Shown here: positions 15,722-61,711 of the stretch, piece by piece | Layout of the letters: every line of letters starts with the position of its first letter | Position numbering within the stretch: position 1 is the first letter of the stretch | Assembly: GCA_040767225.1 (NCBI GenBank) | Contig: JAXGOY010000001.1 | Span: forward strand, 31,128-95,127 | Direction: 5' to 3' | Source: Candidatus Dojkabacteria bacterium | Lineage (GTDB): Bacteria > Patescibacteriota > Dojkabacteria > SC72 | Length of the DNA: 64,000 nt | Made by a program: the position numbers and the translations under genes | The notes under the pieces: generated by a model | What the model was told of the DNA's origin: nothing | Databases searched by the model: none | Seen by the model: the letters and a program-made list of their open reading frames with translations, nothing else

Positions 15722-15742
15722 AATAGATATTGTATCACACTT

Positions 15743-16759
15743 TTAATATGGTGCTGCTCCTTCCTCCTCAAATCCTTTCTCATACAAAACATCATCTTCA
15801 TCAATTATTCTGGTTGTAAGATAGGAGGGGTCTACTGCACATACAAACATTTTTGTTTTTGTCCAATATGTATCACCTGTTACTGTTATTATTCTTCCAT
15901 CACCAGTAAGTACATATGTTGGAAGTAGGAGTCCATTTCCACTATCGTTAAATATGTGCATTAACTGTATATCATTAGTAATATATTCCTTCATACTATA
16001 CTTTGCAGGATTTTGATAGAACCTATCTTCTATAATAGAAGACCCCAATCTTTTAGGATATTTTGAATTTACAACTAATTTATCTATTGGGGCTAACGGC
16101 AGATATTCATACTTAGTTAAATTATTCCTGTCTAATAAAAGAAGTGATAATTGGGTAATTAAACCTTTATTATTTGTTGTAATAACAAATGCATACCCAT
16201 CTAAATATGAGGACCCCACCTTTATATCATCAAATACATACACTCCTTTATATTCAGTTTTTTCATTTTCTTTACTAGTTTCTTTAAGTTCAATATCATT
16301 AATATCAAAATATTCACTAAAAAAGGTTTTAACATCTTCATCTGATAATATTTTAAAATCTATTGGTATTGTATCAGTTGATGTTATTGTTAATACCCCA
16401 GTAATGGGAGAAAACAGTATAAAAGAATTCTCCTTATACATTATTGATAAGTATTCAGGAATTTCAATATCTGAATTAAGGTTATAGAAGTTGTTAACAA
16501 AAGATATCATTTTGTCAGTATCAAACTCAGAGACTTTAAGGATTCTTTCTTCTTTTGGGATATCTATCTTAATCTTTGATACATCAACAGATATTTCTTC
16601 TTCATCAATAGGATATGGACTTTGAATTTTCTCTTTAGTACTTAAATAACCATCTTGAGTAACTTCTTCCTTAGAGAGAAGTAAGAGTACAAGCAGAATA
16701 GCAAGAAGAATAACTCCAACTATTATATATATTTTGTATTTTTTAAAAAATTCTTTCAT
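15743..16759 (-). CDS. Bitopic membrane protein (N-terminal TM, 310-aa exported domain), function unknown; VirB8-like topology
   Basis: Single TM IYIIVGVILLAILLVLLLLS then a soluble domain. Sits 21 nt from the amidase gene and 5 nt from the next gene in the same orientation. Confidence 0.5.
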   Translation of the reverse strand: MKEFFKKYKIYIIVGVILLAILLVLLLLSKEEVTQDGYLSTKEKIQSPYPIDEEEISVDVSKIKIDIPKEERILKVSEFDTDKMISFVNNFYNLNSDIEIPEYLSIMYKENSFILFSPITGVLTITSTDTIPIDFKILSDEDVKTFFSEYFDINDIELKETSKENEKTEYKGVYVFDDIKVGSSYLDGYAFVITTNNKGLITQLSLLLLDRNNLTKYEYLPLAPIDKLVVNSKYPKRLGSSIIEDRFYQNPAKYSMKEYITNDIQLMHIFNDSGNGLLLPTYVLTGDGRIITVTGDTYWTKTKMFVCAVDPSYLTTRIIDEDDVLYEKGFEEEGAAPY

Positions 16760-16764
16760 TATAT

Positions 16765-19356: not shown

Positions 19357-19371
19357 TTTCTATATACCTAA

Positions 19372-20862
19372 TTATTTACTACCAAACATACCTCCAATAA
19401 GCGGTACTTTTTGCAAGCTCTTTTGTACAGCCTCAAATCCAGCACCAAAACCTTGTTTAGAATCAGGTGGAATGAATGATTCAATAAACTTTGGAGCTTG
19501 AGCAGCGAAGAATAAAACAAAAATCTTTAAGACAAAAATAACAAGACCACCTGCAATATTAGGACCCTCTGCATCGTATCCTTCTGTTTCATATACAAGC
19601 TTTGCTGGTAATCGTAGTTTTGCTGTAGCATCATTTGCTAATAATGCATTTGGTATATTAACTATGAAGAATACAACAGGGAACACCAAAACACTTCTCA
19701 AAACACCTTTCACCCAATTCATAATCGCTTTATTATTCCCAGGTATAGCACCTAATGTAATTTGCAGAGGCCCTAAAATAACTGAGAGTAAAAGCTGAAA
19801 ATATGCTTTAAATAGTGTAATTAATACTTTAATTGCTCCAAATGCTATTATTCCCAATACTATTAAAGCAAAAAATAAACCAAGAGCACCAACAGCTGCA
19901 CCTGTTACCGCCCAACCAATTGGACCAGAAATAAGAGCTCCTAATCCTCCTACACCAGCAAGAATTCCTCCTAAACCAAGTGCACCACCAACTACACTAA
20001 TAATTGTAGCCAACTTAAGTTCTCCAGTAAACACATTAGAGAATAATTTCCCAAATCCAGCTATTGAAGTGGCAGTATCAGAAAGATCAAAAACACTTAC
20101 TATCAAACCTATTATCAATCCACCAAAATCTATAATAAGTCCTGCTATTGCGAAACTAAATGTTGCAACAACTAAAGCAATTATTACATTTGGTAAAACA
20201 TTACCCAATGTAACCATAGCCTGACCTCCTATCTTATGCCTAAACATAATCATAAACCCAGCAATAATCATTACAATAACAAAGAAAAGATATGAAAGGT
20301 TAAGTACATTAGTCCATAATGGCTGTATACCCGCAGCTTTAAGCTCACTATACCCTGACCATGTACCATCCTCAGCATACAGTGCAGTTGTGCTATCTTT
20401 ATACCCTGGAACCCATTGCTGTGCTAAATGATCAGGAACATTCACTAGAGGATAGCTTGCATAAACTGCCATTGAAGCATCATCTATCATCCCTATTACT
20501 CCTCTTCTTAAGTCATATGGAACATTTGCAGCTTCTAGCTTTGCTTTAGTTTCTTCATCCAGAAGGTCCTCTCCACCTAAATAAAGTACACCTGTCCAGA
20601 GCGTTGTTACATTTTGCTGTCCCAAACTTGTTTGAGAGTTATCTTCTGTCTCATCAGCATTATTTACAATATTATGGAATTTTTTCTCACCTTCCCAATC
20701 TGGAGTAATTGTTTGTGGAAGGTCTTCCTGTGCATAAGAATTCAATGTACCAAAAAGCAAAAATATAGTAAGGAAAGACATAAGAGAAACCTTAAAACTT
20801 TTTCTCTCTGTTATCTCCTTCATTTTATTTCCTAAGTTATATATCTTCCTTACATTACTCAT
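19372..20862 (-). CDS. Polytopic membrane protein with VirB6/TrbL-like architecture
   Basis: Signal peptide (FLTIFLLFGTLNSYAQE), a 150-aa exported domain, then 6-7 TM helices. Includes the Gly-zipper stretch VVGGALGLGGILAGVGGLGALISGPIGWAVTGAAVGALG and a C-terminal tail. Confidence 0.4.
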   Translation of the reverse strand: MSNVRKIYNLGNKMKEITERKSFKVSLMSFLTIFLLFGTLNSYAQEDLPQTITPDWEGEKKFHNIVNNADETEDNSQTSLGQQNVTTLWTGVLYLGGEDLLDEETKAKLEAANVPYDLRRGVIGMIDDASMAVYASYPLVNVPDHLAQQWVPGYKDSTTALYAEDGTWSGYSELKAAGIQPLWTNVLNLSYLFFVIVMIIAGFMIMFRHKIGGQAMVTLGNVLPNVIIALVVATFSFAIAGLIIDFGGLIIGLIVSVFDLSDTATSIAGFGKLFSNVFTGELKLATIISVVGGALGLGGILAGVGGLGALISGPIGWAVTGAAVGALGLFFALIVLGIIAFGAIKVLITLFKAYFQLLLSVILGPLQITLGAIPGNNKAIMNWVKGVLRSVLVFPVVFFIVNIPNALLANDATAKLRLPAKLVYETEGYDAEGPNIAGGLVIFVLKIFVLFFAAQAPKFIESFIPPDSKQGFGAGFEAVQKSLQKVPLIGGMFGSK

Positions 20863-20889
20863 TTTTGTATATATATAAAAAGTTATTTA

Positions 20890-22182: not shown

Positions 22183-22185
22183 CCT

Positions 22186-23790
22186 TTATTCTAATCCTAC
22201 TATACCATAATTAGGAAGTAAATCTACTTTAGAACCAGTTGTTCCGCTAAGAGCACTAACATCTAATTGTATTTCATCCTGTGCGATATTAAAATCAAAC
22301 TTTTTATCCATTGCTCCCAGAAAACTCCCCTGCAATATGTCATCATCTGAAAAGAGAAAGTAAGAAGAACCATCTGAACTTCTTGCATCTCCGACTACTA
22401 ATGTCCAAGAACCCTGAGCATCCGGAAGAGTAGCAAGATATCCTGAACTTCCTGATGTTCCTTTGCTATCATTATCAATTATTTTAAATATAACAACCCA
22501 ATCAGAAGGATCTGGAGCATTTAAAACTTTACCAGTTCTCATATCAAATGCAGGAGCAGTAGATAATGTAGGCAATGTTGCAACGGAATATTTACTTCCC
22601 CCTTTATCATACACCTTACTCCCAGAGTGTATTTCAAAATAATATGTTGTATTAGGTGATAATCTGTCGCTACTAATATAATGAGAATAATATTTACCTT
22701 TACTAGTAAGAGTATCTCTTGAATCAATCATCTCACTATCTAATCCTGTTTTACTTGTACCATATTTTACATACCCTTCTTCTTTTTCACTTGATCTCCA
22801 TGCAACAACAAAGCTAGTGTCTGTAAGATTAGCAATAACTACACTATCCTGACCTGTTGTAAAAGTGAAACTGCCACTCATACTAGTAGACAAATCATTC
22901 CAAGGGACATCATTTCTTACAATATATACTTCCTCTAAAGGAGTCTCAATTGGATTTGTTGGTTCTGGATTTGGTTCTGGTTCTGGCTCTGGAGGAATTG
23001 GCTCTGCATAAATTGTTTCTCCAAGTAAAACTTCTTTTGGGAAATATGAGATAATTTCCGCTTTGTCTACTGTTTCAATTATTAAATCATTTTTAAGCTG
23101 TCCACTTTTATCAAATAAAGTAGAATAGCTACCTTTTAATACTGCACCTTCGTCTACATCATTTCTTGCTATAACAACAAGGTTAGTATTATCTGTTACT
23201 GGCAAAGAGGTTCCATCCTTTATACTTCTTAAAAGAGAAAGCTCAACAGTCCAATTACCACTCTGGGGAAGATCCACAGATACAGGGTAGCTACTTTTAT
23301 CCTCTAATGTAATATACACAACTGTATCTTTAATATTACTTCCAGCAACAGTACCCAATGCATATGAGGGAACAGGTGTATCTTCCATTACTGAAGCTGT
23401 TGTAAATTCATAAGGACCAGAGCTTCCCTTTGTATATTTCTCCTCATCTGAAACTATGACGAATGAGTATTTTGTTGAAGGTTCTAAGCCCTTTACTTCA
23501 ACATAATGGATTTTCCTTTTTCCATCACCTCTTTTATCAAGCATAGGATTTTGCTCTGTACCGTTGAGCACAGGAATAACATAGCCATTTACAGATTTGT
23601 CTGTAATCCAGCTAATCGTCAAAGAATTCGACCCAACATTAGAAACAACAATGTCATGGGGTGTAGGATCCTCTCCAGCTCTTGATATTAATTGTATCCC
23701 TTTATACACAGCAAAAACTGTTAAAGGAACACCCACTATCAAAATCAATACATATTTAAGCTGTCTTTGCTGATGAGGAGTTAATTTCAT
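22186..23790 (-). CDS. Membrane-anchored protein with two fibronectin-III/PAP-N-like beta-sandwich domains
   Basis: N-terminal TM (YVLILIVGVPLTVFAVY). Blocks SLTISWITDKSVNGYVIP...KYSFVIVSDEEKY and SFVVAWRSSEKEEGYVKYGT...TYYFEIHSG. PEPEPEPNPEP linker. Confidence 0.5.
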   Translation of the reverse strand: MKLTPHQQRQLKYVLILIVGVPLTVFAVYKGIQLISRAGEDPTPHDIVVSNVGSNSLTISWITDKSVNGYVIPVLNGTEQNPMLDKRGDGKRKIHYVEVKGLEPSTKYSFVIVSDEEKYTKGSSGPYEFTTASVMEDTPVPSYALGTVAGSNIKDTVVYITLEDKSSYPVSVDLPQSGNWTVELSLLRSIKDGTSLPVTDNTNLVVIARNDVDEGAVLKGSYSTLFDKSGQLKNDLIIETVDKAEIISYFPKEVLLGETIYAEPIPPEPEPEPNPEPTNPIETPLEEVYIVRNDVPWNDLSTSMSGSFTFTTGQDSVVIANLTDTSFVVAWRSSEKEEGYVKYGTSKTGLDSEMIDSRDTLTSKGKYYSHYISSDRLSPNTTYYFEIHSGSKVYDKGGSKYSVATLPTLSTAPAFDMRTGKVLNAPDPSDWVVIFKIIDNDSKGTSGSSGYLATLPDAQGSWTLVVGDARSSDGSSYFLFSDDDILQGSFLGAMDKKFDFNIAQDEIQLDVSALSGTTGSKVDLLPNYGIVGLE

Positions 23791-49294: not shown

Positions 49295-50098
49295 ATGAGA
49301 CAGCATGCTATACCACAAAACATTTTAGATGTTGAATTTAAGATTTTTACTAAGTTCACACTTAAAGAATTTGCTTACTTAGGAATAGGTGTAGGCATAG
49401 GAGGAGTATTTTTGTACTTTACAACTAAGGGACAGTTCCCTGGTATTGTAGGTGTTCCCCTGTTTATTCTCTTCTCAAGCATAGGGGTGTTCTTTGCACT
49501 TGTTCCAATAAATGATCAGCCTGCTGACAAGTTCATATCTAATTTCTTCTATGCAGTTAATCGTCCTACTCAAAGGGTATGGCTTAACAAAGAGTTAAAA
49601 GATGAAAGAACTAAACCTGCAATACAACCTGAAAAGAAAAAACAAAAAATATTTGGGGGATCTAAAATTGATCAAACAGGACAGGAGGTATATACTGAAA
49701 GTTCAGAGAAGAAGCAACCTGTACAACAAACTGTAGAGCAAGTAATTCCTTCTGCACAAGTTTCTACTAATGAGAAAATAATAATAAATGAAGAAAATAT
49801 ATCTAAGTATCAATTTAAAATTCAAAGTGTAGATAAACTACCTGGAAATATTAATCTGTGGTTATGTACAAAAGACAATCAGCCTATTCCTAATGTCCAG
49901 ACATATTTAAAAGACAAAGATGGAAAACTCCTTTATGCAAACAAAACAGGAAAGAATGGATACTTTCTTACTAATAAGGAGTATCCTGAAGGAATATATA
50001 ATATTGAATTTGAAGGAGCACCCTTTACAATACCTCCCATAAGTATTGTACTTACAAAAAATATGGGTAAATTACCTTATAGAATAGAAGTAAAATAA
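49295..50098 (+). CDS. Two-TM membrane protein with C-terminal beta-sandwich; candidate VirB3/TcpE/PrgI-like T4SS component
   Basis: TM hairpin FAYLGIGVGIGGVFLYFTT / PLFILFSSIGVFFALVPI near the N-terminus. C-terminal KDGKLLYANKTGKNGYFLTNKEYPEGIYNIEFEG is carboxypeptidase-regulatory-like. Directly upstream of the VirB4 gene. Confidence 0.4.
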   Translation: MRQHAIPQNILDVEFKIFTKFTLKEFAYLGIGVGIGGVFLYFTTKGQFPGIVGVPLFILFSSIGVFFALVPINDQPADKFISNFFYAVNRPTQRVWLNKELKDERTKPAIQPEKKKQKIFGGSKIDQTGQEVYTESSEKKQPVQQTVEQVIPSAQVSTNEKIIINEENISKYQFKIQSVDKLPGNINLWLCTKDNQPIPNVQTYLKDKDGKLLYANKTGKNGYFLTNKEYPEGIYNIEFEGAPFTIPPISIVLTKNMGKLPYRIEVK

Positions 50099-50742
50099 TG
50101 GACGCAAATGCAAGAGCAAGAACAACAGCATCAACACAAGATCACCTTGAAATAAAGGATATTGTAGATGATTTAGTAATTACTAAAAGCGGAACTGTAG
50201 CAATGGTAATCCAAACATCAGCAATTAACTTTGATCTTTTAGCTGAATATGAGCAGGATAGTAAAATATTTGCATTTGCAGGACTTCTTAATTCTTTAAA
50301 CTTCCACATACAGATATTAATAAGAACAAGAAGAATAGATATTTCTAATTATGTAGACTATCTTAAAAATCAAGAGAAAGCCGATATGACACCAGGACTA
50401 AAAAAACAGCTAAACATATATACACAATTTATTCAGAGATTAATTATTGAAAATGATGTACTTGATAAAAACTTCTTTCTAGTTATCCCTTACAACCCTG
50501 GAGGAAGTATGCCTACTGCTAACATATTAAAATCCAAAAAGTCTAAACAAGAAATTGAACAGAATATGCAAATGAAACAGAGTCAACTTTTAGAAAAAGC
50601 AAAAATATTTCTCTTTCCTAAAAGAGACCATATACTCAAACAGCTAAATAGAATGGGTTTGGGAGGAAAACAGCTTACAACAAAAGAATTAATTACAGAG
50701 TTTTACACTATATATAATCCAGAAGAAGAAAGAGGAGAATAA
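50098..50742 (+). CDS. Soluble 214-aa protein, unknown function; N-terminal motif resembles the start of VirB4-family proteins
   Basis: HLEIKDIVDDLVITKSGTVAMVIQTSAINFDLLAE parallels the VirB4 N-terminal segment (DHIVLLEDGSIMSIARIDGVAFELEE). Ends 1 nt before the VirB4 ATG. Confidence 0.35.
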   Translation: MDANARARTTASTQDHLEIKDIVDDLVITKSGTVAMVIQTSAINFDLLAEYEQDSKIFAFAGLLNSLNFHIQILIRTRRIDISNYVDYLKNQEKADMTPGLKKQLNIYTQFIQRLIIENDVLDKNFFLVIPYNPGGSMPTANILKSKKSKQEIEQNMQMKQSQLLEKAKIFLFPKRDHILKQLNRMGLGGKQLTTKELITEFYTIYNPEEERGE

Positions 50743-50743
50743 T

Positions 50744-53149
50744 ATGGCAGAAGATAATAAATATCAATCAAAAACAATAGAAGAATTAAAAGAAAAGGAA
50801 AGCTCTCTTACTGAGAATAAGTTTGCCACATTTACACAGGATTTAGCTAAAGACTTAGAACAGATTCAAGAGAAAAAAAATAATGAAAATAATCAACTAA
50901 ACCAGAAAGAAAGATACAATGATCCTGTTGATGAAAAGAAAAAAGAGGTAAAAAAGAATCCAATCCTTAAATTCTTAGATAATTTTATTCCTGAAGAGCA
51001 GAAAACTAAATCTCAGACAGCTGCACAACAACAACCAGTAGAAAGCAAAGTTAGTGAAACTAAATATGAAGGTTTAACACTTCAAGATATAATAGCTCCA
51101 ATTGATATTGAAGTTGACTTTAATCATTTACAAATGGGTGATTACTACTTCAGGACTTTCTTCATTAGTGGGTATCCCAGATTTGTTGGTCCAAACTGGC
51201 TTTCTCCAATTATCAATTTTGAGCACTCCCTGCGAATAAGTACATTCTACTACCCTGTTGATTCTAAAATAATAATGGAAAAATTAAAGAAAAAGATTGC
51301 AGAAATGGAAGCAACAATATATACACAAATGGAAGAAAGAAAAGTTATTGATGCTTCTTTAAAGGTAGCTCTATCTGATGCCCAGCAGCTTCAAGATTCA
51401 ATTGCAGAGGGAACTGAGAAATTCTTTCATTTTGCTATGTATATAACAATATATGCACCTAATAAAGATTTACTTGAAAAATACAGTCGTAATGTAGTAT
51501 CTACTTTAGCTGCAATAGGGGTAACTGCAAAACCTGCAACACTTCAACAAGAGCCAGGCTTCATTAGTACACAGCCATTAGGATTAGACAAGCTGTATGT
51601 AACAAGAAATATGGATACAACCTCTCTTGCTACTACATTTCCATTTGTTACATCTGAACTTACAATGGATCATGGAATTATGTATGGAATAAATATGCAT
51701 AACAAGAGTCTAGTTATTTTTGATAGATTTGAACTTGAAAATGCTAATTCTGTTGTATTTGCAAAATCTGGAGCTGGTAAAAGCTATTTTGTAAAACTTG
51801 AAGCACTAAGAAGCTTAATGCTTGGAACTGATATTATCATTATAGACCCTGAAAGAGAGTATGAAGATCTTTCAAGAGCTGTAGGAGGTTCATATATATC
51901 CTTCTCACAAGACAAAGGGGATAAAATGAATCCATTTGAGCTCTCAGGAGTATATGAAGAAGGTGAAGATGAGTTAAGAATAAAGATACAATCTCTCATT
52001 GGATTCTTTAAGATAATGTTTGATGGACTAAGCAATACTGAAATATCTATACTTGATAGAGCATTAATTCTTACATACAGAGAAAAAGGTATAACATATG
52101 ATCCTGCAACACAAAAGAACCCTCCTCCTATGCTTGAAGATTTATATAAAGTATTAAAGGGAATGGCAGAAGAAGAAGCTCATGACATGGCAAGAAGAAT
52201 GGAAAGATTTATCATTGGAAGTGGTGCTGGTGTATTTAATGAGGCTACAAACTTTGAAATAAATAATTCTTTTACAGTATTTAGTGTAAGAGATCTTCAG
52301 GAAGAACTAAAACCTTTATCAATGTATCTTATGCTTGACTTTATATGGACTGTAATAAGAAAAGAAAAAAAGAGAAGACTTCTCATAGTTGATGAGGCAT
52401 GGTATATGATGCAAAGAAAAGATTCTGCAGAGTTTATGTACTCCATAGCTAAGAGAGCAAGAAAATACTACCTCGGACTTACAACAATAACACAAGATGT
52501 TGCAGACTTTATGCATAATGATTTAGGTAAAGCAATAATTCAAAATGCATCAATGTCTATGCTGATGATGCAAAGCCCTTCTGCTGTAGAAGCAATTCAA
52601 GAGGTATTTCATCTTTCTGATGGAGAAAAAGCTTTCTTGCTAAACTGTGAAAAAGGTCAAGGATTATTCTTTGCAGGTCAAAATCATGTAGCAATGCAGG
52701 TCATATCAAGTGTACAAGAGAACACCCTTATCACCTCAGATCCAAGAGAGCTTGAGAGAATGAGATTAATGGGTGAAAAAGAGAAAAGCATCGAAGAGCT
52801 TTCTGCAATATTTGAGCCTCCTGCAACTCAAATGTCTGTATCTACAGAAACACCAAAGAATAAAGATCTGATAGAAAGAGCTGTAGGAAAGAGAAAAGAA
52901 GATATTAAAGAAATAAAAGAAGAAAGGGAGAAATATCAAGAGGAGTTAAAGAAACGATTAGAAGAACAAGATAGACAACTAAACCCTGATAAATATAACT
53001 CACAAAAAAGTATGGGACAATTAATTGAAGAAAATACTGTTCCAGGGCAAGTAATGAAAGAGAGAAAAGAAATTCAAAAAGGTAAAATGCATATTACCCC
53101 ACAAGGAGTAGTATCTGATGAAAATGAACAACAACCAAAGCAACAATAA
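50744..53149 (+). CDS. VirB4/TrbE/CagE-family type IV secretion ATPase
   Basis: 801 aa. CagE_TrbE_VirB-like block (YYFRTFFISGYPRFVGPNWLSPII). Walker A VFAKSGAGKSYFVK. Walker B RRLLIVDEAWYMM. K/E/Q-rich N- and C-terminal tails. Confidence 0.7.
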   Translation: MAEDNKYQSKTIEELKEKESSLTENKFATFTQDLAKDLEQIQEKKNNENNQLNQKERYNDPVDEKKKEVKKNPILKFLDNFIPEEQKTKSQTAAQQQPVESKVSETKYEGLTLQDIIAPIDIEVDFNHLQMGDYYFRTFFISGYPRFVGPNWLSPIINFEHSLRISTFYYPVDSKIIMEKLKKKIAEMEATIYTQMEERKVIDASLKVALSDAQQLQDSIAEGTEKFFHFAMYITIYAPNKDLLEKYSRNVVSTLAAIGVTAKPATLQQEPGFISTQPLGLDKLYVTRNMDTTSLATTFPFVTSELTMDHGIMYGINMHNKSLVIFDRFELENANSVVFAKSGAGKSYFVKLEALRSLMLGTDIIIIDPEREYEDLSRAVGGSYISFSQDKGDKMNPFELSGVYEEGEDELRIKIQSLIGFFKIMFDGLSNTEISILDRALILTYREKGITYDPATQKNPPPMLEDLYKVLKGMAEEEAHDMARRMERFIIGSGAGVFNEATNFEINNSFTVFSVRDLQEELKPLSMYLMLDFIWTVIRKEKKRRLLIVDEAWYMMQRKDSAEFMYSIAKRARKYYLGLTTITQDVADFMHNDLGKAIIQNASMSMLMMQSPSAVEAIQEVFHLSDGEKAFLLNCEKGQGLFFAGQNHVAMQVISSVQENTLITSDPRELERMRLMGEKEKSIEELSAIFEPPATQMSVSTETPKNKDLIERAVGKRKEDIKEIKEEREKYQEELKKRLEEQDRQLNPDKYNSQKSMGQLIEENTVPGQVMKERKEIQKGKMHITPQGVVSDENEQQPKQQ

Positions 53150-53326
53150 CAAAACAATATATCAATATAATGTAACTGCTAATTCGGACATTAACTATAC
53201 TAATATTCCCAAGATGAATAACAATGGGAATGGTACCCCCAACCCTCCAATACAAAAACAACCGTTTGAACCTGCACTAAAGAGAGCACAGATGGCATTA
53301 AAGCTGGTAAATCCTTTTAAAGGTGT

Positions 53327-54445
53327 TTAACTTAAAGGACCTTGATCAGGAAGAACATACTGTTTGAGATTATCAGGTGTAATTACAATAGGAATACTCT
53401 TTCCACTCACAATTTCCCTTGCTGCACTTCTAAGTAGTGTTGCAATATTCCTTTCAAGCTGACGTATACCTGCATCAAAACCAACTGGTCTTATAATCAA
53501 AGGCCATACATCTTCAGATATTTGAATGTATTCAGGAGGCAATCCCATAGATGCTAATGTTCTAGGAAGTATATATGATTTAGCAATAATCTCTTTCTCT
53601 TGATCACTATAACTTGTAAAACGAATAACCTCGAGTCTATCAAGCAATGCAGCAGATAGCCCTCCTAAGTTATTTGCAGTACATATAAAGAATACTTGAG
53701 ATAAATCGACAGGATAGTCAATATAATGATCTACAAATGTAGAGTTTTGCTCAGGATCAAGTATCTCAAGCAGTGCAGCCATCATATCATTCTGAACACC
53801 TTTGTTCTGACTTGATTTTTCAATTTCATCTATAAGAATAACAGGATTCATAGTACCAGCTCTTACTAAAGACTTTATAATCTGCCCAGGTTCCGCATCA
53901 GGCTCATGTCTAGGAACACCTCTAAGTGTCCTTACATCTCCCACTGCCCCAAGAGATATTCTTGCAAACTTTCTTCCCATTGCTTTTGCTATTGATTGTG
54001 CAATAGATGTTTTTCCAACACCCTGAAGACCTACAAAAAGTAAAGTAGGTATTTGTGGTGAATTATCTGTAACATTTCCACCTCTAGCTCTTTGCATATT
54101 TTTCAATTGCATTACTGCAAGATAATCAAGAATCATCTCCTTTATAGTATCCATACCATAATGAGTAGAATCCATCATTCTTCTTGCATTTTCTATATCC
54201 AGATTATCCTTAGATACAACTCCCCATGGGATTCTTGTAATCCAATCAACATATTTATCTACACTCTCAAACTCAGAGCTATAATTACCAAGCCTAGCCA
54301 TTCTCTCAAGCCTTTGGATAGTTTTCATCGTCTGCTCTTTTAGCTCAATAGGGGCATTAGAAGATGCCAATTTATTCTGAAGCTCAACTATCTCAGACAT
54401 TACATTATCATTTACTGTTGTGTAATCCATATCAAAATATATCAC
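53327..54445 (-). CDS. Lon-type AAA+ ATPase module without a protease domain
   Basis: LLFVGLQGVGKTSIAQSIAKAMGRKFARISLGAVGDVRTLRGVPRHEPDAEPGQIIKSL...ILIDEIEKSS...LLEILDPEQN...LLDRLEVIRFTSYSDQEK aligns along the Lon ATPase. The protein ends where the S16 peptidase domain would begin. Confidence 0.7.
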   Translation of the reverse strand: MIYFDMDYTTVNDNVMSEIVELQNKLASSNAPIELKEQTMKTIQRLERMARLGNYSSEFESVDKYVDWITRIPWGVVSKDNLDIENARRMMDSTHYGMDTIKEMILDYLAVMQLKNMQRARGGNVTDNSPQIPTLLFVGLQGVGKTSIAQSIAKAMGRKFARISLGAVGDVRTLRGVPRHEPDAEPGQIIKSLVRAGTMNPVILIDEIEKSSQNKGVQNDMMAALLEILDPEQNSTFVDHYIDYPVDLSQVFFICTANNLGGLSAALLDRLEVIRFTSYSDQEKEIIAKSYILPRTLASMGLPPEYIQISEDVWPLIIRPVGFDAGIRQLERNIATLLRSAAREIVSGKSIPIVITPDNLKQYVLPDQGPLS

Positions 54446-55797: not shown

Positions 55798-56385
55798 TTA
55801 AAAATTCTTCCATATTTTACTCGCTTGTACTGTCAAATCACCAACATACTTACTATTTAAACTTTTACTACCATATGGCTTCTCGCAAGGAGTATCAAGC
55901 TCCTCAAAAGCAATTTGTGCAATCTTCATACCTACATATATTCTAATAGGAAGAGGAGAAAGATTAACCATTTCTAGTGTTAATCTTAATTTGTTTCCTG
56001 GATCTAAAAATCCAGCAGTAGCATGTATAATTAACCCTATTCTTGCAAGAGAGCTCTTTCCTTCAAGTCTTCCAACATGTTTACTATCTACTCCCGTTAT
56101 CTCAATGACATTAGCAAGTACAAGCTGGTGTGGTTCTATTACAAATCCGCTATCACTTATCTGTGTTCTAATCATTAATTCATCAACAGGTTTCTTAACA
56201 TCAATAATATTATTTCCATTAGTATTAAAATACATAATATTTTTATCAAGATGTAAATCATATGATGCAGGCTGAAGACTATCTTGTGAGAATGGAGATA
56301 TACTTATCTCTCCTGTATTAATTTTTTCCTTAATGCTTTTATCAGAAAGTATCATATTTAAAACTTTTAATTTAACTCCTATCAA
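55798..56385 (-). CDS. dcd: dCTP deaminase
   Basis: 195 aa, dUTPase-fold motifs (GFLDPGNKLRLTLEMVN, IYVGMKIAQIAFE). Confidence 0.8.
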   Translation of the reverse strand: MIGVKLKVLNMILSDKSIKEKINTGEISISPFSQDSLQPASYDLHLDKNIMYFNTNGNNIIDVKKPVDELMIRTQISDSGFVIEPHQLVLANVIEITGVDSKHVGRLEGKSSLARIGLIIHATAGFLDPGNKLRLTLEMVNLSPLPIRIYVGMKIAQIAFEELDTPCEKPYGSKSLNSKYVGDLTVQASKIWKNF

Positions 56386-57966
56386 TAAACTGATCTCTTG
56401 ATGCAGGATCAGGCATTTCTATTTTTCTTAGTAAAGGATACCATATACTATCATTACTATTTAATAACTCTAACCATTTGTATACTAGTGCTCTGTATGC
56501 AATATGACCTCCTCTTGCACTTCGCAAACTAATTGTATACTGCAGGTCATCAATAGAAGCATAGAAACAGTATCTAGTTGCATGAGCATGAGGAAGAAGA
56601 TATTTAGTAAACTCCTGAGAGTACTCCTCGGACACAACTTTAAGTGAATCATTTCTCCATCTCTTTATCATATTATATGTTCCTATTAAAGCTTTCTCAT
56701 ACTCTTTCTTTAATTCGGACATCTCAGGTATATCAAGATAATTACATAGGAAGAAGCAATCCTTGCTATCTCTGTTTAACTCATTATCAATATCTATCTC
56801 ATCATGTAAAAGTGGTATAAATCTCTCAAAACTCCTATGTCTATTTAAATCTTTTAATGTACATAATGCAGACATACCCTCTATCTTAATTGAACCACTC
56901 TGTCCAAGATTGCCTATAAGGTTGTGCTGATTATGATTCTTAAAAAGAACTTCACCAATATATTCAGAATCTTCATCATCAAATTCAAGCTCATTCTCAC
57001 TACCCAATGGATTTATTAATAGCTCATAATGAGTAAAAAGGTCTTCTACTGCATTATCGTTATAACTAACAGTACATGAATCACTCTCACTTCCTTTATT
57101 AATATATTGCCTTTGTGCTGAAACCTTTTTCCTAAGATACTCTAGTATCTCTTTGGTAGAGTCCTTTCTTGAATAATTAGCCTCAGTGTGCCTTACAAGA
57201 CCATCAGCTTCCCTAATATACCCATCTATATTTACATCAGAATCTCCAAGCAAGTTATATATCAACTTTCCCACCTCTCTATCTACAATACTATCCCCTG
57301 CATTAAGATATGATATTAACTCAGACCAGTTTCTTGCAGACATGACTGCTGCCATACTTGTCTGCACTCCATATGGAAGAAGGTATCTTGCACAATCAAA
57401 ACTTCTTGCCTGTAATGCAGATTTTTCTTCTTTAATATCCTCATTAATATTAAAATACTCCTTAAATATCTCCTTTGTCTTTTTTAACAAAACAGAGTAA
57501 TCATCCATCTGTTTTAAGATTATATTTTCATACTCTTTCCTAATCTCTTGGTTATTACAAATCTCCTTAGGAATTTTAATATACTTAGGTTCTTCAAAAT
57601 TCTGATATCTTGTAGACCTTTCCTGACCTGATATTACAGAATTAAGATAGAATATTTTCATTGCAGAAAGCATTGGAATATTTTCAATACATACAAAGAG
57701 CTGAGCCATATCACCTACAGATTTATGACCATATCCATGAAATATCGCTTCTAGTCTTTGTGCAGCATCAGTATTATTCTTAATAATTTCAGATGCAATA
57801 TCAATTACACTATCAGAAGATTACTGTATCTTGCACCTAAATATGCATTGATAGAGGGCTGTTTTTGATTAACATTCTCAAGAAGAGTACGAACCTTAAA
57901 CTGATTCCAGTCAGCTTCAGACTCTATACTTGCTATTTGTATATCTTTTCTAAATGTACCTTTCAT
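56372..57966 (-). pseudogene. thyX: Long two-lobed flavin-dependent thymidylate synthase (ThyX-like) interrupted by one frameshift
   Basis: ORF 56372-57709 (open to 57820) carries FHGYGHKSVGDMAQLFVCIEN, ARSFDCARYLLPYGVQT...SARNWSELISYL, RHR in LNRHRSFERF and LPHAHATRYCFYASIDDLQYTISLRSARGGHIAYRAL. A separate 53-codon ORF 57805-57966 (MKGTFRKDIQ...INAYLGARYSNLLIV*) encodes the ThyX N-terminus in another frame. The gene is flanked by dcd and glyA. Confidence 0.55.
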
Positions 57967-59200
57967 ATTCCTGTATATTAAAATCCTTACTAAAATCTCT
58001 CACCTCATCTTTAATTCTCTTAAGATTATCCTCAGAGCTATCATTTAGTGCCCTGTATATATACTCTGAGATTTGGAACATATCTTTTTCTTTCATACCT
58101 CTTGTAGTAACAGCAGCACTCCCTATCCTTACACCTGAAGGATCCCATGGTTTTCTTTCATCAAATGGTATTGCATTTTTGTTTAATGTAATATTTACAG
58201 ATTCTAGAATATCAGAAACCTCTTTACCACTCTTTCCTATACTCTTAATCGTATCTACTAAAAACATATGATTATCAGTACCACCAGATACAATATTAAA
58301 CCCTTTATCTGCTAAAGAAGATGCCAAAGTTTTTGCATTACTAATTACTTGTTTTGCATATTCCTTAAACTCATTACTTTGAGCTTCTTTTAAGGCAACA
58401 GCTATGCCTGCTGTAATATGATTATGAGGACCTCCTTGAAGCCCTGGAAATACTGCCTTATCTATTAACTCTCCATACTCTTCCTTGCACATAATTATAG
58501 CTCCTCTTGGACCTCTGAGAGTTTTATGAGTAGTTGTTGTAACTACATCTGCAATACCTACAGGAGAAGGATACAGTCCTGCTGCAACAAGTCCTGCAAC
58601 ATGTGCTATGTCAGCAACAAGTATTGCACCAACCTCATCAGCAATCTTTCTAAATTCATTCCAATCAACTATTCTTGAATATGCACTAAACCCGCTCCAT
58701 ATGAGTTTTGGTTTATGCTCCAGAGCTATTCTTCTTACATCATCATAATCAATATATCCCTCTTTATTTACACCATAACTTACTGAATCAAAATATTTCC
58801 CACTTATAGATACCTTAAAACCATGTGTAAGATGCCCTCCTGCTGAAAGATCCATTCCCATTGTTCTATCTCCTGGTTTAAGGAATGCAAAGTGTACAGC
58901 TAAATTAGCAGGAGAGCCAGAATATGGCTGAACGTTTACATGTTCTGCACCAAAAAGTTCTTTTGCTCTATTAATACATTCTTCTTCTATTTTATCAATA
59001 TACTCATTACCACCATAATATCTTTTATGTGGATATCCTTCTGAGTATTTGTTTGTAAGTATACTCCCCATTGCTTTAAGTACATCTTCACTTACATAAT
59101 TCTCAGAAGCGATAAGCTCTATTCCTTCTTTCTGTCTTTTAGATTCCTCTTGTATATATTCAAATATTTCATCTTTATACATTTCTTTTATACATCTCAA
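57950..59200 (-). CDS. glyA: Serine hydroxymethyltransferase
   Basis: 416 aa. YSGSPANLAVHFAFLKPGDRTMGMDLSAGGHLTHG, and PLP-Lys TTTTHKTLRGPRG. Confidence 0.95.
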   Translation of the reverse strand: MRCIKEMYKDEIFEYIQEESKRQKEGIELIASENYVSEDVLKAMGSILTNKYSEGYPHKRYYGGNEYIDKIEEECINRAKELFGAEHVNVQPYSGSPANLAVHFAFLKPGDRTMGMDLSAGGHLTHGFKVSISGKYFDSVSYGVNKEGYIDYDDVRRIALEHKPKLIWSGFSAYSRIVDWNEFRKIADEVGAILVADIAHVAGLVAAGLYPSPVGIADVVTTTTHKTLRGPRGAIIMCKEEYGELIDKAVFPGLQGGPHNHITAGIAVALKEAQSNEFKEYAKQVISNAKTLASSLADKGFNIVSGGTDNHMFLVDTIKSIGKSGKEVSDILESVNITLNKNAIPFDERKPWDPSGVRIGSAAVTTRGMKEKDMFQISEYIYRALNDSSEDNLKRIKDEVRDFSKDFNIQEYERYI

Positions 59201-60022
59201 TTAAATTATCAAACAAACATGCTATTGTCATAGGACCAACTCCTCCAGGAACTGGAGTAATATATCCTACGATATCTTTTACACTATTAAAATCAACATC
59301 TCCCACTAACTTACCCTCACTATTTCTATTTGTTCCAACATCAATTACAATACTTCCATTTTTAACATATTCAGAATTAATATATTCAGCCCTTCCTATA
59401 CTTGATACTAATATATCTGCATCTTTACATATATCTTTTAGTTCTTGTGTATGTGAATGACATATGGTTACAGTAGCATTTCTTGTTTTGAAGCATTGCT
59501 GCAATGGGTAGTCCTGATATATCTCCTCTACCAATAACAACTGCTCTTTTCCCTTCAATTTGTATATCATAGTTATCCAACAATTTAATTACTCCTTTAG
59601 CAGTAGCAGGTGGTATTGCAGATGAATCATTTTAAATAGTTTTCCTAAATTAGTAGATGTAAGTCCATCAACATCTTTAGAAGGGAGTATACTTTCTAAT
59701 ACTTCACTTTCGTTAATATGCTCAGGCATTGGTAGTTGTACCATAATTCCATCAACTTCATTCTCATTATTAAGCTCTTTATGAGTTTAATTAATTGAGC
59801 CTGTGAAATGTCTTTATCAAATGTATGTATATTTACTAATATTCCTAAATCTAATGCTTTTTTCTCTTTCATATTTACATACATCTGACTAGCATAATCA
59901 TCTCCTACAAGCATTATATCTATTCTTGGTGCTCTTTTACCTTCTTGAAGATATTTCTGGATTTCTGTTTTTAGATTCTGTAACATCACAGATGATGTAT
60001 ATTTACCGTCTAATATTTCCAT
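59175..60022 (-). pseudogene. folD: Methylenetetrahydrofolate dehydrogenase/cyclohydrolase FolD, disrupted by three +/-1 frameshifts
   Basis: N-terminal fragment 59696-60022 (ILDGKYTSSVMLQNLKTEIQ...IMLVGDDYASQMYV). Continuous FolD sequence (NNENEVDGIMVQLPMPEHINESEVLESILPSKDVDGLTSTNLGKLFK / NDSSAIPPATAKGVIKLLDNYDIQIEGKRAVVIGRGDISGLPIAAMLQNK / NATVTICHSHTQELK...VGTNR...PVPGGVGPMT) is recovered only by shifting frame near 59785, 59650 and 59495, each at an A-run. Confidence 0.7.
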
Positions 60023-60052
60023 TTATGTATATTTAAAATTATTCTATGTATT

Positions 60053-60732
60053 TTACTCCATATCTCTTACTGCTGTAACTATACCCCTTCTTGTATTTGA
60101 TCCTACAGGCCAGCATGTCATTAAAGTAAGAGTGTCCTGATCCATATATTTACCTAAATATTTTATCTCCTCTGGTTTAACTACCTTAAACTCTACCACC
60201 TTGTATTTATATATCTTTCCTTCATAGCTTACATATATCTGATCCTCTTTCTCTAACTCTCTAAAAGATAGAAGTAGACATTGTATTTTCTTCTTTCATA
60301 GAAATTAACAGTAGAGTGTGCAAAAAGAAATACATTACCATGTTCATCTGGTAGTGCAGACCCTTTTGCATGTGCTACTCCATATACAAGTGCATTTCTA
60401 TATTCCTCAAAGTTATTAATATCCACATTCTTTATTACCTTTGCATTTGCTTTTATCTTAGGAATATATATTCCAAAATCACTGTTTACAAATACAATCT
60501 CTGTATCTTCATCTATCTTCTCAGTGATATTTTGTTCATTTTCTGTAATTTCTACTTTAATTTCCTTAGGTGGTTTAGGTGAAAAACGATAATCAAAATA
60601 TGATGACAAAAATGGCTGATATGTAAAAAACAGTATAATTAATCCAACAAGGAGAAGCAGGATACCTGTGTATTTCAGGTATCCTGTTTTTTTCTTTTTA
60701 CTTTTTTCTTCTGATGTAGTTGTAGATTCCAC
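60053..60732 (-). pseudogene. Second sortase gene, interrupted by a frameshift
   Basis: N-terminal ORF 60253-60732 (TM, ...VYGVAHAKGSALPDEHGNVFLFAHSTVNFYERRKYNVYF). The C-terminal part, in the -1 frame to a stop at 60053, reads SFRELEKEDQIYVSYEGKIYKYKVVEFKVVKPEEIKYLGKYMDQDTLTLMTCWPVGSNTRRGIVTAVRDME. The shift lies in ttctatctttt. Confidence 0.65.
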
Positions 60733-61711
60733 TTCCTAATACTACCACAATTAGTGATATAATGAGATATTTGTATTTATCCCATATACTTTCTTCTGTT
60801 TCTTTTTCTTCTGTTTTAGTTTCGTCTTTCGTATCAGTTTCTACTTCCTCTTCCTGTTGTGCAGTAGTCTCTTCCCCTGCTACTTCTCCTGTACTAGTTG
60901 TTTCCTGCTCCTGCTGTGTAGTGGTTTCTTCTCCTGCTACTTCTTCACTTTCCTGTGATGTTGATGTCTGTGTCTGTTCTACAACTGTAACAACATTATC
61001 AGTAACCAGAGCAGATACATTGCTGTACTCATCTACTGCTCTTACTGCATAGTAATATTCTTTTGAGCAGTCAGCTGGTGTATCAGTATATGTTGATAAT
61101 GCATTTGGTGTAACAGTAAGATATGGTTTTGTAATTAGTGTTGTATCATCTGCATAGAATGATTTCTGATTATCAGATCTAAATATCTGTACTTTTGATG
61201 TTGATGATTTGAATTTCAGAGTATATGTACATACTGTTTTCTCTTTTGAATATTCTGTTACTGGAGATGGTTTGTCTGCTACTTTTACAGTAACTACTTC
61301 TGATTCTGCTCCTTCTCCATCAGTAGTTGATGCTATGGCTTTAAAGTAGTATGTTCCACTTCCTGTAACTATACTTTGATCTACCTTACAATCTCCACTG
61401 TTTGTTGTTTTAGATATATCAAAATTAGAGAAGTTTACTCCATCAAGAGAGTACTGACATTGTACAGTTATTGGTTTTACTGGTATTGAGAGTGCTACAT
61501 ATGTAATATTAAACTCTCTATCAGTTATACCTATTTTAGGTTCTTCTAATCTAACACTTACTTTTGCAGTAGTTTGAGCATATGTTTGAACTGGTTTAAG
61601 TAGTGTAAATATACCAATAGCAAATACAAAAGTTATTACTAAGATACTTGTTTTTCTCTTTTTAAAGAATAGTAAGAAGATTCCTAATATCATAGATATT
61701 AATGCTCCCAA
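60698..61711 (-). CDS. Surface protein with FN3-like beta domains, acidic T/E-rich repeat region and C-terminal TM anchor
   Basis: TTG/ATG start region MGALISMILGIFLLFFKKRKTSILVITFVFAIGIFTLLKPVQTYAQT (signal-like). C-terminal ...EESIWDKYKYLIISLIVVVLGSGIYNYIRRKK. The reading frame stays open upstream to 61846. Confidence 0.5.
   Translation of the reverse strand: MGALISMILGIFLLFFKKRKTSILVITFVFAIGIFTLLKPVQTYAQTTAKVSVRLEEPKIGITDREFNITYVALSIPVKPITVQCQYSLDGVNFSNFDISKTTNSGDCKVDQSIVTGSGTYYFKAIASTTDGEGAESEVVTVKVADKPSPVTEYSKEKTVCTYTLKFKSSTSKVQIFRSDNQKSFYADDTTLITKPYLTVTPNALSTYTDTPADCSKEYYYAVRAVDEYSNVSALVTDNVVTVVEQTQTSTSQESEEVAGEETTTQQEQETTSTGEVAGEETTAQQEEEVETDTKDETKTEEKETEESIWDKYKYLIISLIVVVLGSGIYNYIRRKK
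60845..60960 (-). repeat. Imperfect tandem duplication (about 57 nt) encoding EVAGEETT(T/A)QQE repeats
   Basis: Copies at 60845-60901 and 60902-60960 (ttcctg(t/c)t(g/c)...ctcttc(c/t)cctgctacttc). Confidence 0.5.

Follow-up and report, generated by a model that had tools for sequence, protein, structure and literature searches.

A conserved PrgI-TrsD-VirB4 module, probably the energising core of a Patescibacteria-type T4SS, on a Candidatus Dojkabacteria chromosome

Patescibacteria carry a phylum-wide core of VirB4, TrsD and PrgI, usually without a relaxase, and Dojkabacteria genomes with VirB4 are included in the surveyed dataset (PMC12102498; Quinonero-Coronel 2025). The T4SS of this phylum is non-conjugative and derived from the MPF-FATA type (Quinonero-Coronel 2025; Wang 2023; PMC12102498, PMC10633639). 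It has been shown to be essential to the epibiotic growth of Southlakia (PMC10633639), which places it among the few machines known to be required for the epibiotic life of ultrasmall bacteria, while its function has been termed completely unknown (PMC11665869). In the present study, a stretch of 64 kb (the window) was analyzed, whose best database matches are Candidatus Dojkabacteria/WS6 (Patescibacteria). Our results indicate that the locus at 49295-53330 is very probably the conserved energising core of a Patescibacteria-type, MPF-FATA-derived T4SS on the chromosome of this organism. The core is real and under selection, and it is an ordinary member of the published system. A reading made from the sequence alone (the sequence-only reading) had framed the arrangement as unusual, whereas it belongs to a published, phylum-wide core. 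The central observation thus holds but is not new, since it matches the published Patescibacteria T4SS and a survey that includes Dojkabacteria.

The closest relatives are the T4SS of Southlakia epibionticum (SEML1_0006-0019) and those of the 2025 survey, with which the locus shares a chromosomal VirB4 from a clade specific to Patescibacteria and nested in MPF-FATA, PrgI/VirB3 and TrsD homologues adjoining virB4, and the lack of a relaxase. The VirB4 is 53-57% identical to those of other Patescibacteria lineages. However, the module is cut down here to PrgI, TrsD and VirB4 plus one small class-specific gene, and, in contrast to Southlakia, it has no adjoining VirB2-like pilin array, VirB6 or hydrolase; such genes are frequent, though not universal, near virB4 in Patescibacteria T4SS. 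Unlike in many Patescibacteria classes, the module is not beside dnaA/dnaN, although recF is adjacent. The features are listed in Table 1.

Table 1. Coordinates of the module and of the candidate membrane protein within the window
Feature	Coordinates	Strand	Size or residues	Basis
ORF1, PrgI/VirB3-family protein	49295..50098	+	267 aa	Pfam PrgI match, AF2 model
ORF1, membrane helical hairpin			aa 23-73	
ORF1, juxtamembrane helices			aa 77-106	
ORF1, disordered K/Q/E-rich linker (flexible)			aa 110-159	
ORF1, C-terminal transthyretin/CarboxypepD_reg-like beta-sandwich	49772..50095	+	aa 160-267	AF2 + Foldseek fold match
ORF2, TrsD/TraC-like protein	50098..50742	+	214 aa	TrsD/TraD, PF26593, fold match, natural fusion
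ORF3, VirB4-family ATPase, CD1110 type	50744..53149	+	801 aa	NCBIfam conju_CD1110
ORF3, Walker A GAGKS	51770-51784		aa 343-347	
ORF3, Walker B LLIVDEAW	52379-52402		aa 546-553	
ORF3, conserved H[IL]TPQG motif of the tail	53090-53107			
Fourth gene, small hydrophilic protein	53118..53330	+	70 aa	Conserved ORF, NPF[KR]G C-terminus
Candidate VirB6-like polytopic membrane protein	19372..20862	-	496 aa	TM prediction + neighbourhood elsewhere

The three ORFs that the sequence-only reading had placed at 49295-53149 are all intact, and its assignment of ORF3 to the CagE/TrbE/VirB4 proteins was borne out. All three hallmark motifs are present, namely Walker A, Walker B and the block YYFRTFFISGYPRFVGPNWL at residues 134-153. 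The best curated model was NCBIfam conju_CD1110 (389 bits against a cut-off of 325, model positions 101-734), and the mycoplasma-ICE VirB4, TraC and VirB4_CagE models gave lower values. A disordered N-terminal stretch of ~110 aa is followed by the second half of the VirB4 N-terminal domain, the P-loop C-terminal domain and a charged tail of ~140 aa. The protein thus combines a P-loop domain bearing both Walker motifs with the N-terminal domain specific to VirB4, as in the VirB4/TraC/CagE family. Pfam P-loop_TraG matched with 92.6 bits, and the best solved relative is the VirB4 ATPase domain of Thermoanaerobacter (PDB 4AG5, 176 bits). In a neighbor-joining tree, ORF3 falls inside a monophyletic group of all sampled Patescibacteria sequences (100/100); this tree is distance-based and was built on 553 columns from a small sample, with five Firmicutes/Actinobacteria references and no diderm outgroup.

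ORF2 is the N-terminal module of VirB4, ~200 residues long, present as a separate gene. The sequence-only reading had described it as a tightly coupled but unknown soluble protein; the coupling stands, as ORF1 and ORF2 share one base in the junction TAATG, but the protein is recognizable as TrsD/TraC-like. NCBIfam TrsD/TraD (NF041427) matched with an E-value of 4.7e-8, although its 33 bits are far under the curated cut-off of 200; Pfam PF26593 (TraC-like) is recorded in the precomputed annotation. In the AF2 model (pLDDT 82), the 14 best PDB fold matches found by Foldseek were all TrwK/VirB4 of R388. A natural TrsD-VirB4 fusion (P0459), found on three contigs, is collinear with both proteins, at 42% identity to ORF2 and 56% to ORF3. 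By these features, ORF2 is a TrsD member at the level of the domain rather than of the narrow NCBIfam subfamily. In addition, the TrsD profile aligns with residues 21-206 of the full-length CD1110-type VirB4 of Clostridium botulinum, as well as separate proteins encoded 5' of short VirB4s in Pontibacillus and B. cereus, with no match on the short VirB4s themselves. Judged from these matches, the first ~100-200 positions of the CD1110 model are supplied by ORF2. ORF2 and ORF3 are joined by TAA-T-ATG, and a GGAG lies nine bases upstream of the ORF3 start.

Similar split pairs are known from plasmids. The TrsC-TrsD-TrsE genes of pGO1/pSK41 type in Staphylococcus and the Bacillus/Pontibacillus pairs have the same order (VirB3-like, TrsD-like, VirB4) and the same VirB4 without its first ~200 residues, which are carried by the TrsD-like protein. 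Unlike the window, the conjugative ones among these plasmids have relaxase, T4CP, VirB6-like and hydrolase genes; their VirB4s are 30-37% identical to ORF3, and the best TrsD-like match is ~31%. The CTn2/CD1110-family VirB4s of Clostridia, the family of the best-scoring model, differ in being single polypeptides borne on plasmids or ICEs with a MOBP relaxase, and are ~30% identical. The C. botulinum protein is collinear with ORF2 over its first ~200 residues, and its neighbours are PrgI and VirB6/TrbL CD1112. The R388 complex of TrwM (VirB3) and TrwK (VirB4) (PDB 7O41, 8RTB) provides a structural template for a VirB3 that holds VirB4, and ORF2 resembles TrwK in its fold (Foldseek E 1.7e-4, probability 1.0, ~180-200 aligned columns). 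However, R388 is a diderm MPF-T system whose VirB4 is unsplit and resembles ORF3 in sequence only over the P-loop domain (22 bits), and whose VirB3 has no extra domain.

ORF1, whose 3' end lies 646 nt before virB4, has the features of a PrgI/VirB3 protein. It passed Pfam PrgI (PF12666) at residues 6-93 with 36.2 bits against a cut-off of 27, lies 5' of virB4, and forms a two-helix hairpin in the AF2 model (residues 23-44 and 50-73), in agreement with the two-transmembrane protein previously proposed for the VirB3/TcpE/PrgI position. A carboxypeptidase-regulatory-like beta-sandwich fused to this protein had also been proposed, and it was confirmed at the level of the fold. The domain was modelled with a pLDDT of ~90, and its top Foldseek matches in the PDB were CnaB pilin domains, transthyretin and the carboxypeptidase D regulatory domain (E 6e-5 to 1e-3). 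In the Pfam search, this region gave weak matches only to SdrD_B (E 0.022) and bMG3 (E 0.074), and CarboxypepD_reg (PF13620) gave no match on ORF1 itself at E <= 5. Orthologues from two other Patescibacteria lineages carry a recorded CarboxypepD_reg annotation, and one of them, in locus L087, scored 33.7 bits on PF13620 against a cut-off of 32.3 when rescored. The beta-sandwich is kept across 67 aligned ORF1 orthologues, and its fusion to PrgI recurs in other Patescibacteria lineages; the Pontibacillus VirB3/PrgI-like protein, in contrast, is too short for such a domain (116 aa). Because the hairpin consists of two helices and its flanks are K/R-rich, the beta-sandwich is predicted to be cytoplasmic.

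The sequence-only reading had listed three genes and missed a fourth. This conserved gene overlaps the 3' end of virB4 by 32 nt, has a GGAG 9 nt upstream of its ATG, and is also called in public contigs. Of the 76 sequences that contain a VirB4 ORF (the window and 75 related loci), 71 have an ORF at this position whose product ends in NPF[KR]G. The body of the protein is variable, but its C-terminus (aL+LxNPF[KR]Gx-stop) is near-invariant, and its dN/dS is 0.09-0.31. No Pfam or NCBIfam family matched it.

Several parts of a T4SS were sought in the window. No recognizable homologue of VirB6, VirB8, VirB1, VirB2 or VirD4 was found beside the module or, by HMM, in the 64 kb, so a complete machine is not demonstrated here; nor did the window hold small two-TM pilin-like ORFs or arrays of them. 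Faint CD1107 and Mbov_0395 matches at 60698-61711 were traced to a low-complexity linker and a C-terminal anchor. The 496-aa protein, encoded 29 kb from the triad, has a signal/anchor, an outside domain of ~150 aa and seven predicted TM helices. Two T4SS loci from other Patescibacteria (L085, E 1.5e-12; L087, E 6e-11) each encode a homologue of this protein 4-7 kb upstream of PrgI. The 496-aa protein matched no TrbL, VirB6 or PrgH family in Pfam or NCBIfam, and the HH probability against the TrbL-like protein of Pontibacillus was 3%. Its topology and the gene neighbourhood in L085 and L087 make it a candidate, not a proven, VirB6 analogue.

The reduced gene content could mean that three genes have survived from an integrated conjugative element that decayed and no longer functions. 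The usual MPF-FATA order is VirB6-VirB3-(TrsD)-VirB4-hydrolase, as on plasmids of Pontibacillus, Brevibacillus and C. botulinum, and only its VirB3-TrsD-VirB4 part is present. However, the ORFs and Walker motifs are intact, and in 71 of 80 species loci the triad keeps its order and its chromosomal position, with VirB4 identities of 58-97%; contig ends interrupt the remaining nine. The surrounding block (S20-lepA-recF...Lon-csd-dcd-thyX-glyA-folD) is conserved class-wide. The dN/dS of ORF1-ORF3 is 0.04-0.10, in line with 0.04-0.05 for the neighbouring lepA and recF at equal divergence, and the triad is thus under purifying selection like that on these housekeeping genes. Its GC content resembles that of the surroundings, no repeat boundary is present around it, and no integrase, relaxase, coupling protein (T4CP), transposase or replicon function was found in the whole 64-kb window, which extends the earlier remark that mobile-element genes were missing nearby. 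Both the selection data and the synteny contradict decay, which is highly improbable. The lack of relaxase, T4CP and integrase genes, the housekeeping synteny, the purifying selection and the phylum literature support a chromosomal, non-conjugative use, as the sequence-only reading had argued, with DNA uptake, assembly of a pilus-like filament or delivery of effectors as candidate roles. The locus also resembles the Patescibacteria T4SS clade in its VirB4 grouping, its Patescibacterium host, its chromosomal position and the lack of a MOB gene in the 64 kb.

The neighbourhood of recF (TIGR00611, 229 bits), which lies directly upstream of the triad, bears on two further explanations. The module had been described as directly downstream of recF; this holds in the window but not generally, as direct adjacency was seen in only 10 of 61 related species, and in most species the two are kept apart by a gene on the minus strand or by a distance of up to 5 kb. 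The recF neighbourhood is without functional message. A non-T4SS, HerA/FtsK-type ATPase pumping DNA in repair together with RecF would fit the adjacency in the window and the Pfam DUF87 (HerA central domain) match at ORF3 residues 338-417 (30.9 bits). Yet this match spans only a generic P-loop stretch, whereas the whole of ORF3 passes the CD1110 equivalog, ORF3 has the N-terminal block specific to VirB4 and is accompanied by PrgI and TrsD as partners, and the tree places ORF3 with the Patescibacteria VirB4s and not with HerA or FtsK. This explanation is refuted by the family scores, and we give it hardly any credence. The module might instead import DNA or RNA, like Helicobacter ComB or archaeal Ced, to feed a nucleotide-auxotrophic cell, with recF nearby reflecting that role. 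Nucleic-acid uptake has been proposed for Patescibacteria T4SS (PMC11665869; bioRxiv 10.64898/2026.06.21.733656), ABY1-class T4SS genes lie near comF, recG and radA (PMC12102498), and neither a coupling protein nor a relaxase is present. However, the CedB and CedD models scored 52 and 20 bits, with cut-offs of 700 and 600, the module has no DNA-binding or nuclease component, and recF adjacency is rare. Import is unlikely, though it deserves consideration, and it concerns the cargo of the Patescibacteria-type T4SS rather than a different machine.

If the locus is the core of such a T4SS, the PrgI/VirB3-like protein would sit in the cytoplasmic membrane through its helical hairpin and hold the VirB4 ATPase there. 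VirB4 would be built from two polypeptides, ORF2 providing the first half of the N-terminal domain and ORF3 the second half and the P-loop motor. The assembled oligomer, driven by ATP, may build and power a channel across the envelope, perhaps together with a pilus. The channel's membrane components would be encoded elsewhere, the 496-aa polytopic protein being one candidate. The most likely task of the machine is to carry macromolecules, either protein or nucleic acid, between the presumably episymbiotic cell and its host; an epibiotic lifestyle is assumed for this organism by analogy with its phylum. Given the lack of a relaxase and coupling protein and the vertical inheritance among housekeeping genes, the machine would not serve self-transfer.

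The locus is no new kind of system. It represents a minimal ATPase module, conserved class-wide, in which PrgI, TrsD, VirB4 and one small gene stand apart from pilin, channel and hydrolase genes. In the literature consulted, we found no description of the fourth gene with its NPF[KR]G end, the H[IL]TPQG motif of the VirB4 tail, the recurrence of the PrgI beta-sandwich fusion across Patescibacteria lineages, the candidate VirB6-like protein, or the limited extent of recF adjacency. The split VirB4 with its natural fusion counterpart, the beta-sandwich on VirB3 and the two short invariant motifs offer handles for structural and interaction studies of a T4SS without a coupling protein. Parts of this module that are specific to the lineage may even functionally replace the missing coupling protein in Dojkabacteria and partly in other Patescibacteria, although we consider this quite doubtful. 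The tethered, probably cytoplasmic beta-sandwich of PrgI may be a docking platform, and the fourth protein, through its invariant NPF[KR]G end, may bind to it as a dedicated adaptor, as a regulator or as the first substrate. A part for the H[IL]TPQG tail of VirB4 is conceivable too, and the channel half may lie at a second locus at 14.5-23.8 kb, where the 496-aa polytopic family is found together with wall hydrolases.

Three plus-strand ORFs make up the module, in exact agreement with the coordinates claimed by the sequence-only reading. They are tightly coupled, with translational coupling between neighbors: the ORF1 stop and the ORF2 start have one base in common (TAATG), a single base lies between the ORF2 stop and the ORF3 start, and a GGAG stands nine bases upstream of the ORF3 start. 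Promoter and terminator scans gave an outcome no better than shuffles. Together the genes encode a membrane-anchored VirB3-like protein and a VirB4 in two pieces whose ATPase motifs are intact.

Coordinates of the features discussed, as window positions
Feature	Position	Strand	Basis or content
RF03531 match	12556-12656	-	Rfam, 72.8 bits
Unannotated six-protein cluster	14534-23790	-	no family assigned with confidence, except fn3 in the first protein
Cluster, in order: 534 aa, 430 aa, 496 aa, then 863 aa	14534-23790	-	fn3 in 534 aa; signal/anchor and seven predicted TM helices in 496 aa
Cluster, 863-aa protein	14534-23790	-	two TM helices and Cys-rich HExxH C-terminal domain
Cluster, end: 338 aa, 395 aa	14534-23790	-	338 aa bitopic; weak amidase_2-like and SH3-like matches in 395 aa
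ORF1, PrgI/VirB3-like membrane anchor, 267 aa	49295-50098	+	ORF scan, Pfam PrgI
ORF2, TrsD/TraC-like, 214 aa	50098-50742	+	ORF scan, NCBIfam TrsD/TraD
ORF3, VirB4-family ATPase, 801 aa	50744-53149	+	ORF scan, NCBIfam CD1110 equivalog
VirB4 tail motif H[IL]TPQG, aa 783-788	53090-53107	+	
Small fourth gene, 70 aa, overlapping virB4 3' end	53118-53330	+	conserved ORF position and C-terminus
Lon-like AAA+ protein, 372 aa	53327-54445	-	
thyX/folD/sortase region	56372-60732	-	
Surface protein, 337 aa	60698-61711		

The ATPase motifs quoted earlier for ORF3 were all found: Walker A GAGKS (aa 343-347), Walker B LLIVDEAW (aa 546-553), and YYFRTFFISGYPRFVGPNWL (aa 134-153). ORF3 scored 389 bits against the curated NCBIfam equivalog for CD1110 family VirB4-like conjugal transfer ATPases (cut-off 325 bits), and stepwise lower against the NCBIfam models for mycoplasma-ICE VirB4 (285), F-type TraC (174), and VirB4_CagE (117); the model of CedB, an archaeal DNA importer, gave only 52 bits. 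The closest solved structure is the Thermoanaerobacter VirB4 ATPase domain (4AG5, 176 bits), and the match to R388 TrwK in the PDB sequence search was confined to the P-loop region. Membership of a HerA/FtsK clade had been named as a finding that would overturn the VirB4 assignment. Pfam DUF87/HerA does match ORF3, weakly and within a generic P-loop stretch only, and this restriction together with the VirB4-family scores excludes the HerA/FtsK alternative.

ORF2, left as an unknown protein by the sequence-only reading, can be named as TrsD/TraC-like. It matched NCBIfam TrsD/TraD with an E-value of 4.7e-8 but a score well short of the narrow curated threshold, as well as the N-terminal part of the NCBIfam model for full-length mycoplasma VirB4, and Pfam's newer TraC-like family, PF26593, is found in its orthologues. 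The PDB sequence search returned nothing useful for ORF2; the 14 best PDB matches to its AlphaFold2 model (pLDDT 82) were all R388 TrwK/VirB4 chains, after which the probability fell to about 0.5 or less. Searching 1.84 billion representatives by profile retrieved 1,862 clusters, in which the ORF2 domain was N-terminal in all cases and was followed in many members by long low-complexity tails. One retrieved protein, P0459 (787 aa, three contigs), is a natural collinear TrsD-VirB4 fusion: its residues 7-199 correspond to ORF2 (42% identity) and residues 213-785 to ORF3 117-681 (56%). The ORF2-family profile also matched residues 21-206 of a full-length Clostridium botulinum CD1110 VirB4. In Pontibacillus and Bacillus cereus, where VirB4 is short (about 620 aa), the profile picked up the small standalone protein encoded ahead of it but not VirB4 itself. 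ORF2 might instead have been a duplicate of an N-terminal part retained in ORF3. This was rejected, since profile-profile comparison within Dojkabacteria found no similarity between ORF2 and ORF3, and ORF2 is therefore the missing first part of VirB4. Taken together, the P0459 fusion, the TrwK fold matches, the profile matches, and the lack of ORF2-ORF3 similarity show that ORF2 and ORF3 are a split VirB4, the same arrangement as TrsD-TrsE in pGO1-type systems. In other Patescibacteria, four TrsD/TraC-like proteins (P0403, P0413, P0462, P0474) carry Q/P/S/T-rich disordered tails of 300-500 residues, which end in LPPI[AS]EI[TE] in three of the four and in the related PPLPEI in P0403; the Dojkabacteria protein is without such a tail.

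PrgI is the monoderm equivalent of VirB3, and ORF1 passed the Pfam PrgI cut-off (36.2 bits against 27). The AlphaFold2 model of ORF1, built from an alignment of 67 orthologues, contains a membrane hairpin (helices 23-44 and 50-73) followed by two more helices that end at residue 106. A disordered linker (110-159) then leads to a beta-sandwich modelled with confidence (160-267, pLDDT about 90). The best PDB fold matches of this beta-sandwich were CnaB-type pilin domains, transthyretin, and the carboxypeptidase D regulatory domain (E 6e-5 to 1e-3); the PDB sequence search gave nothing useful. The earlier description of a two-TM protein fused to a beta-sandwich was therefore right. The Pfam CarboxypepD_reg model did not match ORF1 of the window; it matched the 464-aa PrgI orthologue of another Patescibacteria lineage (L087, 33.7 bits against a cut-off of 32.3) and, weakly, that of a second (L091, 374 aa), and PrgI of a third lineage (L085) had the same C-terminal pattern. 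Thus, the fusion appears to be widespread in the phylum and not peculiar to this genome. The two membrane helices and their K/R-rich flanks predict a cytoplasmic beta-sandwich.

All close homologues belonged to Candidatus Dojkabacteria (WS6), a class of Patescibacteria. The PrgI, TrsD, and VirB4 genes were found in this order in 71 of 80 species-level loci, the other nine being cut by contig ends. The class-wide order is S20, two small genes, lepA, recF, a variable interval, PrgI, TrsD, VirB4, and a small ORF, continuing with Lon-like AAA, csd, dcd, thyX, glyA, and folD. In the window, lepA and recF overlap by one base and recF (TIGR00611, 229 bits) ends 51 nt upstream of ORF1, so the module does lie immediately downstream of recF as reported, but this does not hold as a general arrangement. 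Because direct adjacency occurred in only 10 of 61 loci, the recF neighborhood carries no functional message. The usual occupant of this variable spot is a minus-strand nucleotidyltransferase-like gene, present in most Dojkabacteria species of loci L012-L080 (about 255 aa, with a GS-x-AAG...DDDID motif by sequence inspection), or, in some of these loci, up to 5 kb of assorted unrelated genes. The extra genes found there or after virB4 in other species (nucleotidyltransferase-like, assorted cargo, an ABC transporter) included no T4SS part.

The module is vertically inherited and under strong constraint. Compared with one 97%-identical relative, dN/dS was 0.095 for PrgI, 0.036 for TrsD, and 0.047 for VirB4, beside 0.047 for lepA and 0.040 for recF. 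In a neighbor-joining tree of the VirB4 core alignment, the window sequence fell inside the Dojkabacteria group (100/100), and all sampled Patescibacteria formed one group (100/100) against the Firmicutes and Actinobacteria references. The nearest VirB4s outside Patescibacteria (37-38% identity) were from two large replicons that are recorded as plasmids and are non-mobilizable, in Pontibacillus sp. ALD_SL1 (898 kb) and Streptomyces (p1). At the Pontibacillus locus, the gene products in order are pilin-like, weakly TrbL/VirB6-like, weakly VirB3-like, TrsD-like, VirB4, and a member of the DD-metalloendopeptidase family, with flagellar genes alongside; the locus may be another non-conjugative use of T4SS machinery.

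As claimed earlier, mobile-element genes are missing nearby: a scan of all ORFs of at least 110 aa in the 64 kb, excluding those that fall inside longer annotated genes, found no integrase, relaxase, coupling protein, or transposase. The ORFs were otherwise housekeeping, apart from surface and sortase proteins and the unannotated cluster. The 337-aa surface protein was rejected as a VirB2; its faint CD1107-like and Mbov_0395 pilin matches sit on an acidic/Thr-rich linker and the C-terminal anchor. Two proteins of the S20-lepA interval, TM193 and hyp184, were dropped as VirB6/VirB8 candidates with no supporting match, and hyp184 resembles an all-beta domain on inspection. The unannotated cluster resembles the VirB6/wall-hydrolase half of monoderm T4SS loci, and two other Patescibacteria T4SS loci (L085, L087) encode homologues of its 496-aa protein at a distance of 4-7 kb upstream of PrgI. 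HMM and profile comparisons found no sequence link between this protein and TrbL/VirB6, and an exact-sequence look-up returned no database record. The 863-, 338-, 430-, and 395-aa proteins had no significant match to the T4SS-locus proteins of Pontibacillus (L084), L085, or L087, and a PDB search with the 863-aa protein found no informative match. The cluster is a candidate for the T4SS half that comprises channel and hydrolase.

VirB4 has been reported in 2,417 of 3,035 Patescibacteria genomes, mostly as one clade nested in MPF-FATA, with TrsD and PrgI/VirB3 as the commonest neighbors and relaxases almost always absent; Dojkabacteria assemblies with VirB4 are in the genome table, and the authors concluded that the system had been recruited to a function other than conjugation (Quinonero-Coronel et al., 2025; PMC12102498). 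In Southlakia, epibiotic growth requires the T4SS genes (Wang et al., 2023; PMC10633639). The sequence-only reading of a chromosomal, non-conjugative T4SS agrees with both reports; it is therefore correct in observation and interpretation, but describes a published system, one that is real and biologically important. From R388 structures and family biology, PrgI would hold the VirB4 oligomer at the membrane, ORF2 would supply the part missing from the ORF3 N-terminal domain, and a channel encoded elsewhere would be both assembled and used for transport at the expense of ATP hydrolysis. Because relaxase and coupling protein are absent, and given the Southlakia data, the machine probably serves host interaction rather than conjugation. 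A later review calls the role of the Patescibacteria T4SS "completely unknown" (PMC11665869), and later reviews weigh effector delivery or nucleic-acid uptake (for nucleic acid, PMC11665869; bioRxiv 10.64898/2026.06.21.733656). Within a host-interaction role, DNA or RNA import is a live sub-hypothesis for the cargo.

Our analysis adds class-specific details, namely the fourth gene, the VirB4 tail motif, and the 14534-23790 cluster; in the published accounts of Patescibacteria T4SS that were consulted, no mention was found of the gene, the motif, or an association of the cluster with the T4SS. An ORF at the fourth-gene position ending in NPF[KR]G was present in 71 of the 76 sequences with a VirB4 ORF (75 related loci and the window). 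Its C-terminus is near-invariant (...aL+LxNPF[KR]Gx, or L-x-[LI]-x-N-P-F-[KR]-G-x) and its body variable and hydrophilic; a GGAG lies 9 nt upstream, and dN/dS was 0.09-0.31. It matched no Pfam or NCBIfam family, and no comparable called gene followed virB4 in the few loci of other Patescibacteria lineages inspected. The H[IL]TPQG motif lies in the charged, otherwise poorly conserved tail of VirB4, is preceded by R-x-[DE]-x-Q-[KR]-G, and is kept in nearly all Dojkabacteria orthologues.

At their stops, the fourth gene and the convergent Lon-like gene overlap by 4 nt. The Lon-like gene has the same place across the class, and its product aligns with Lon only over the ATPase and lid region (model positions 253-567 of 795); neither a protease domain nor an N-terminal domain was detected. 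Relative to 91-95% identical public contigs, the thyX/folD/sortase region has single-base indels, several in homopolymer runs, that leave folD in four ORF pieces, thyX at 445 instead of 531 aa, and the sortase at 159 instead of 226 aa. Either the assembly is in error here or the genes have recently become pseudogenes; the T4SS genes are intact. The sole Rfam match, RF03531, is a Clostridioides difficile sRNA "included into helicase gene"; its position within the coding sequence of the UvrD/PcrA helicase makes coding conservation the probable source of the match.
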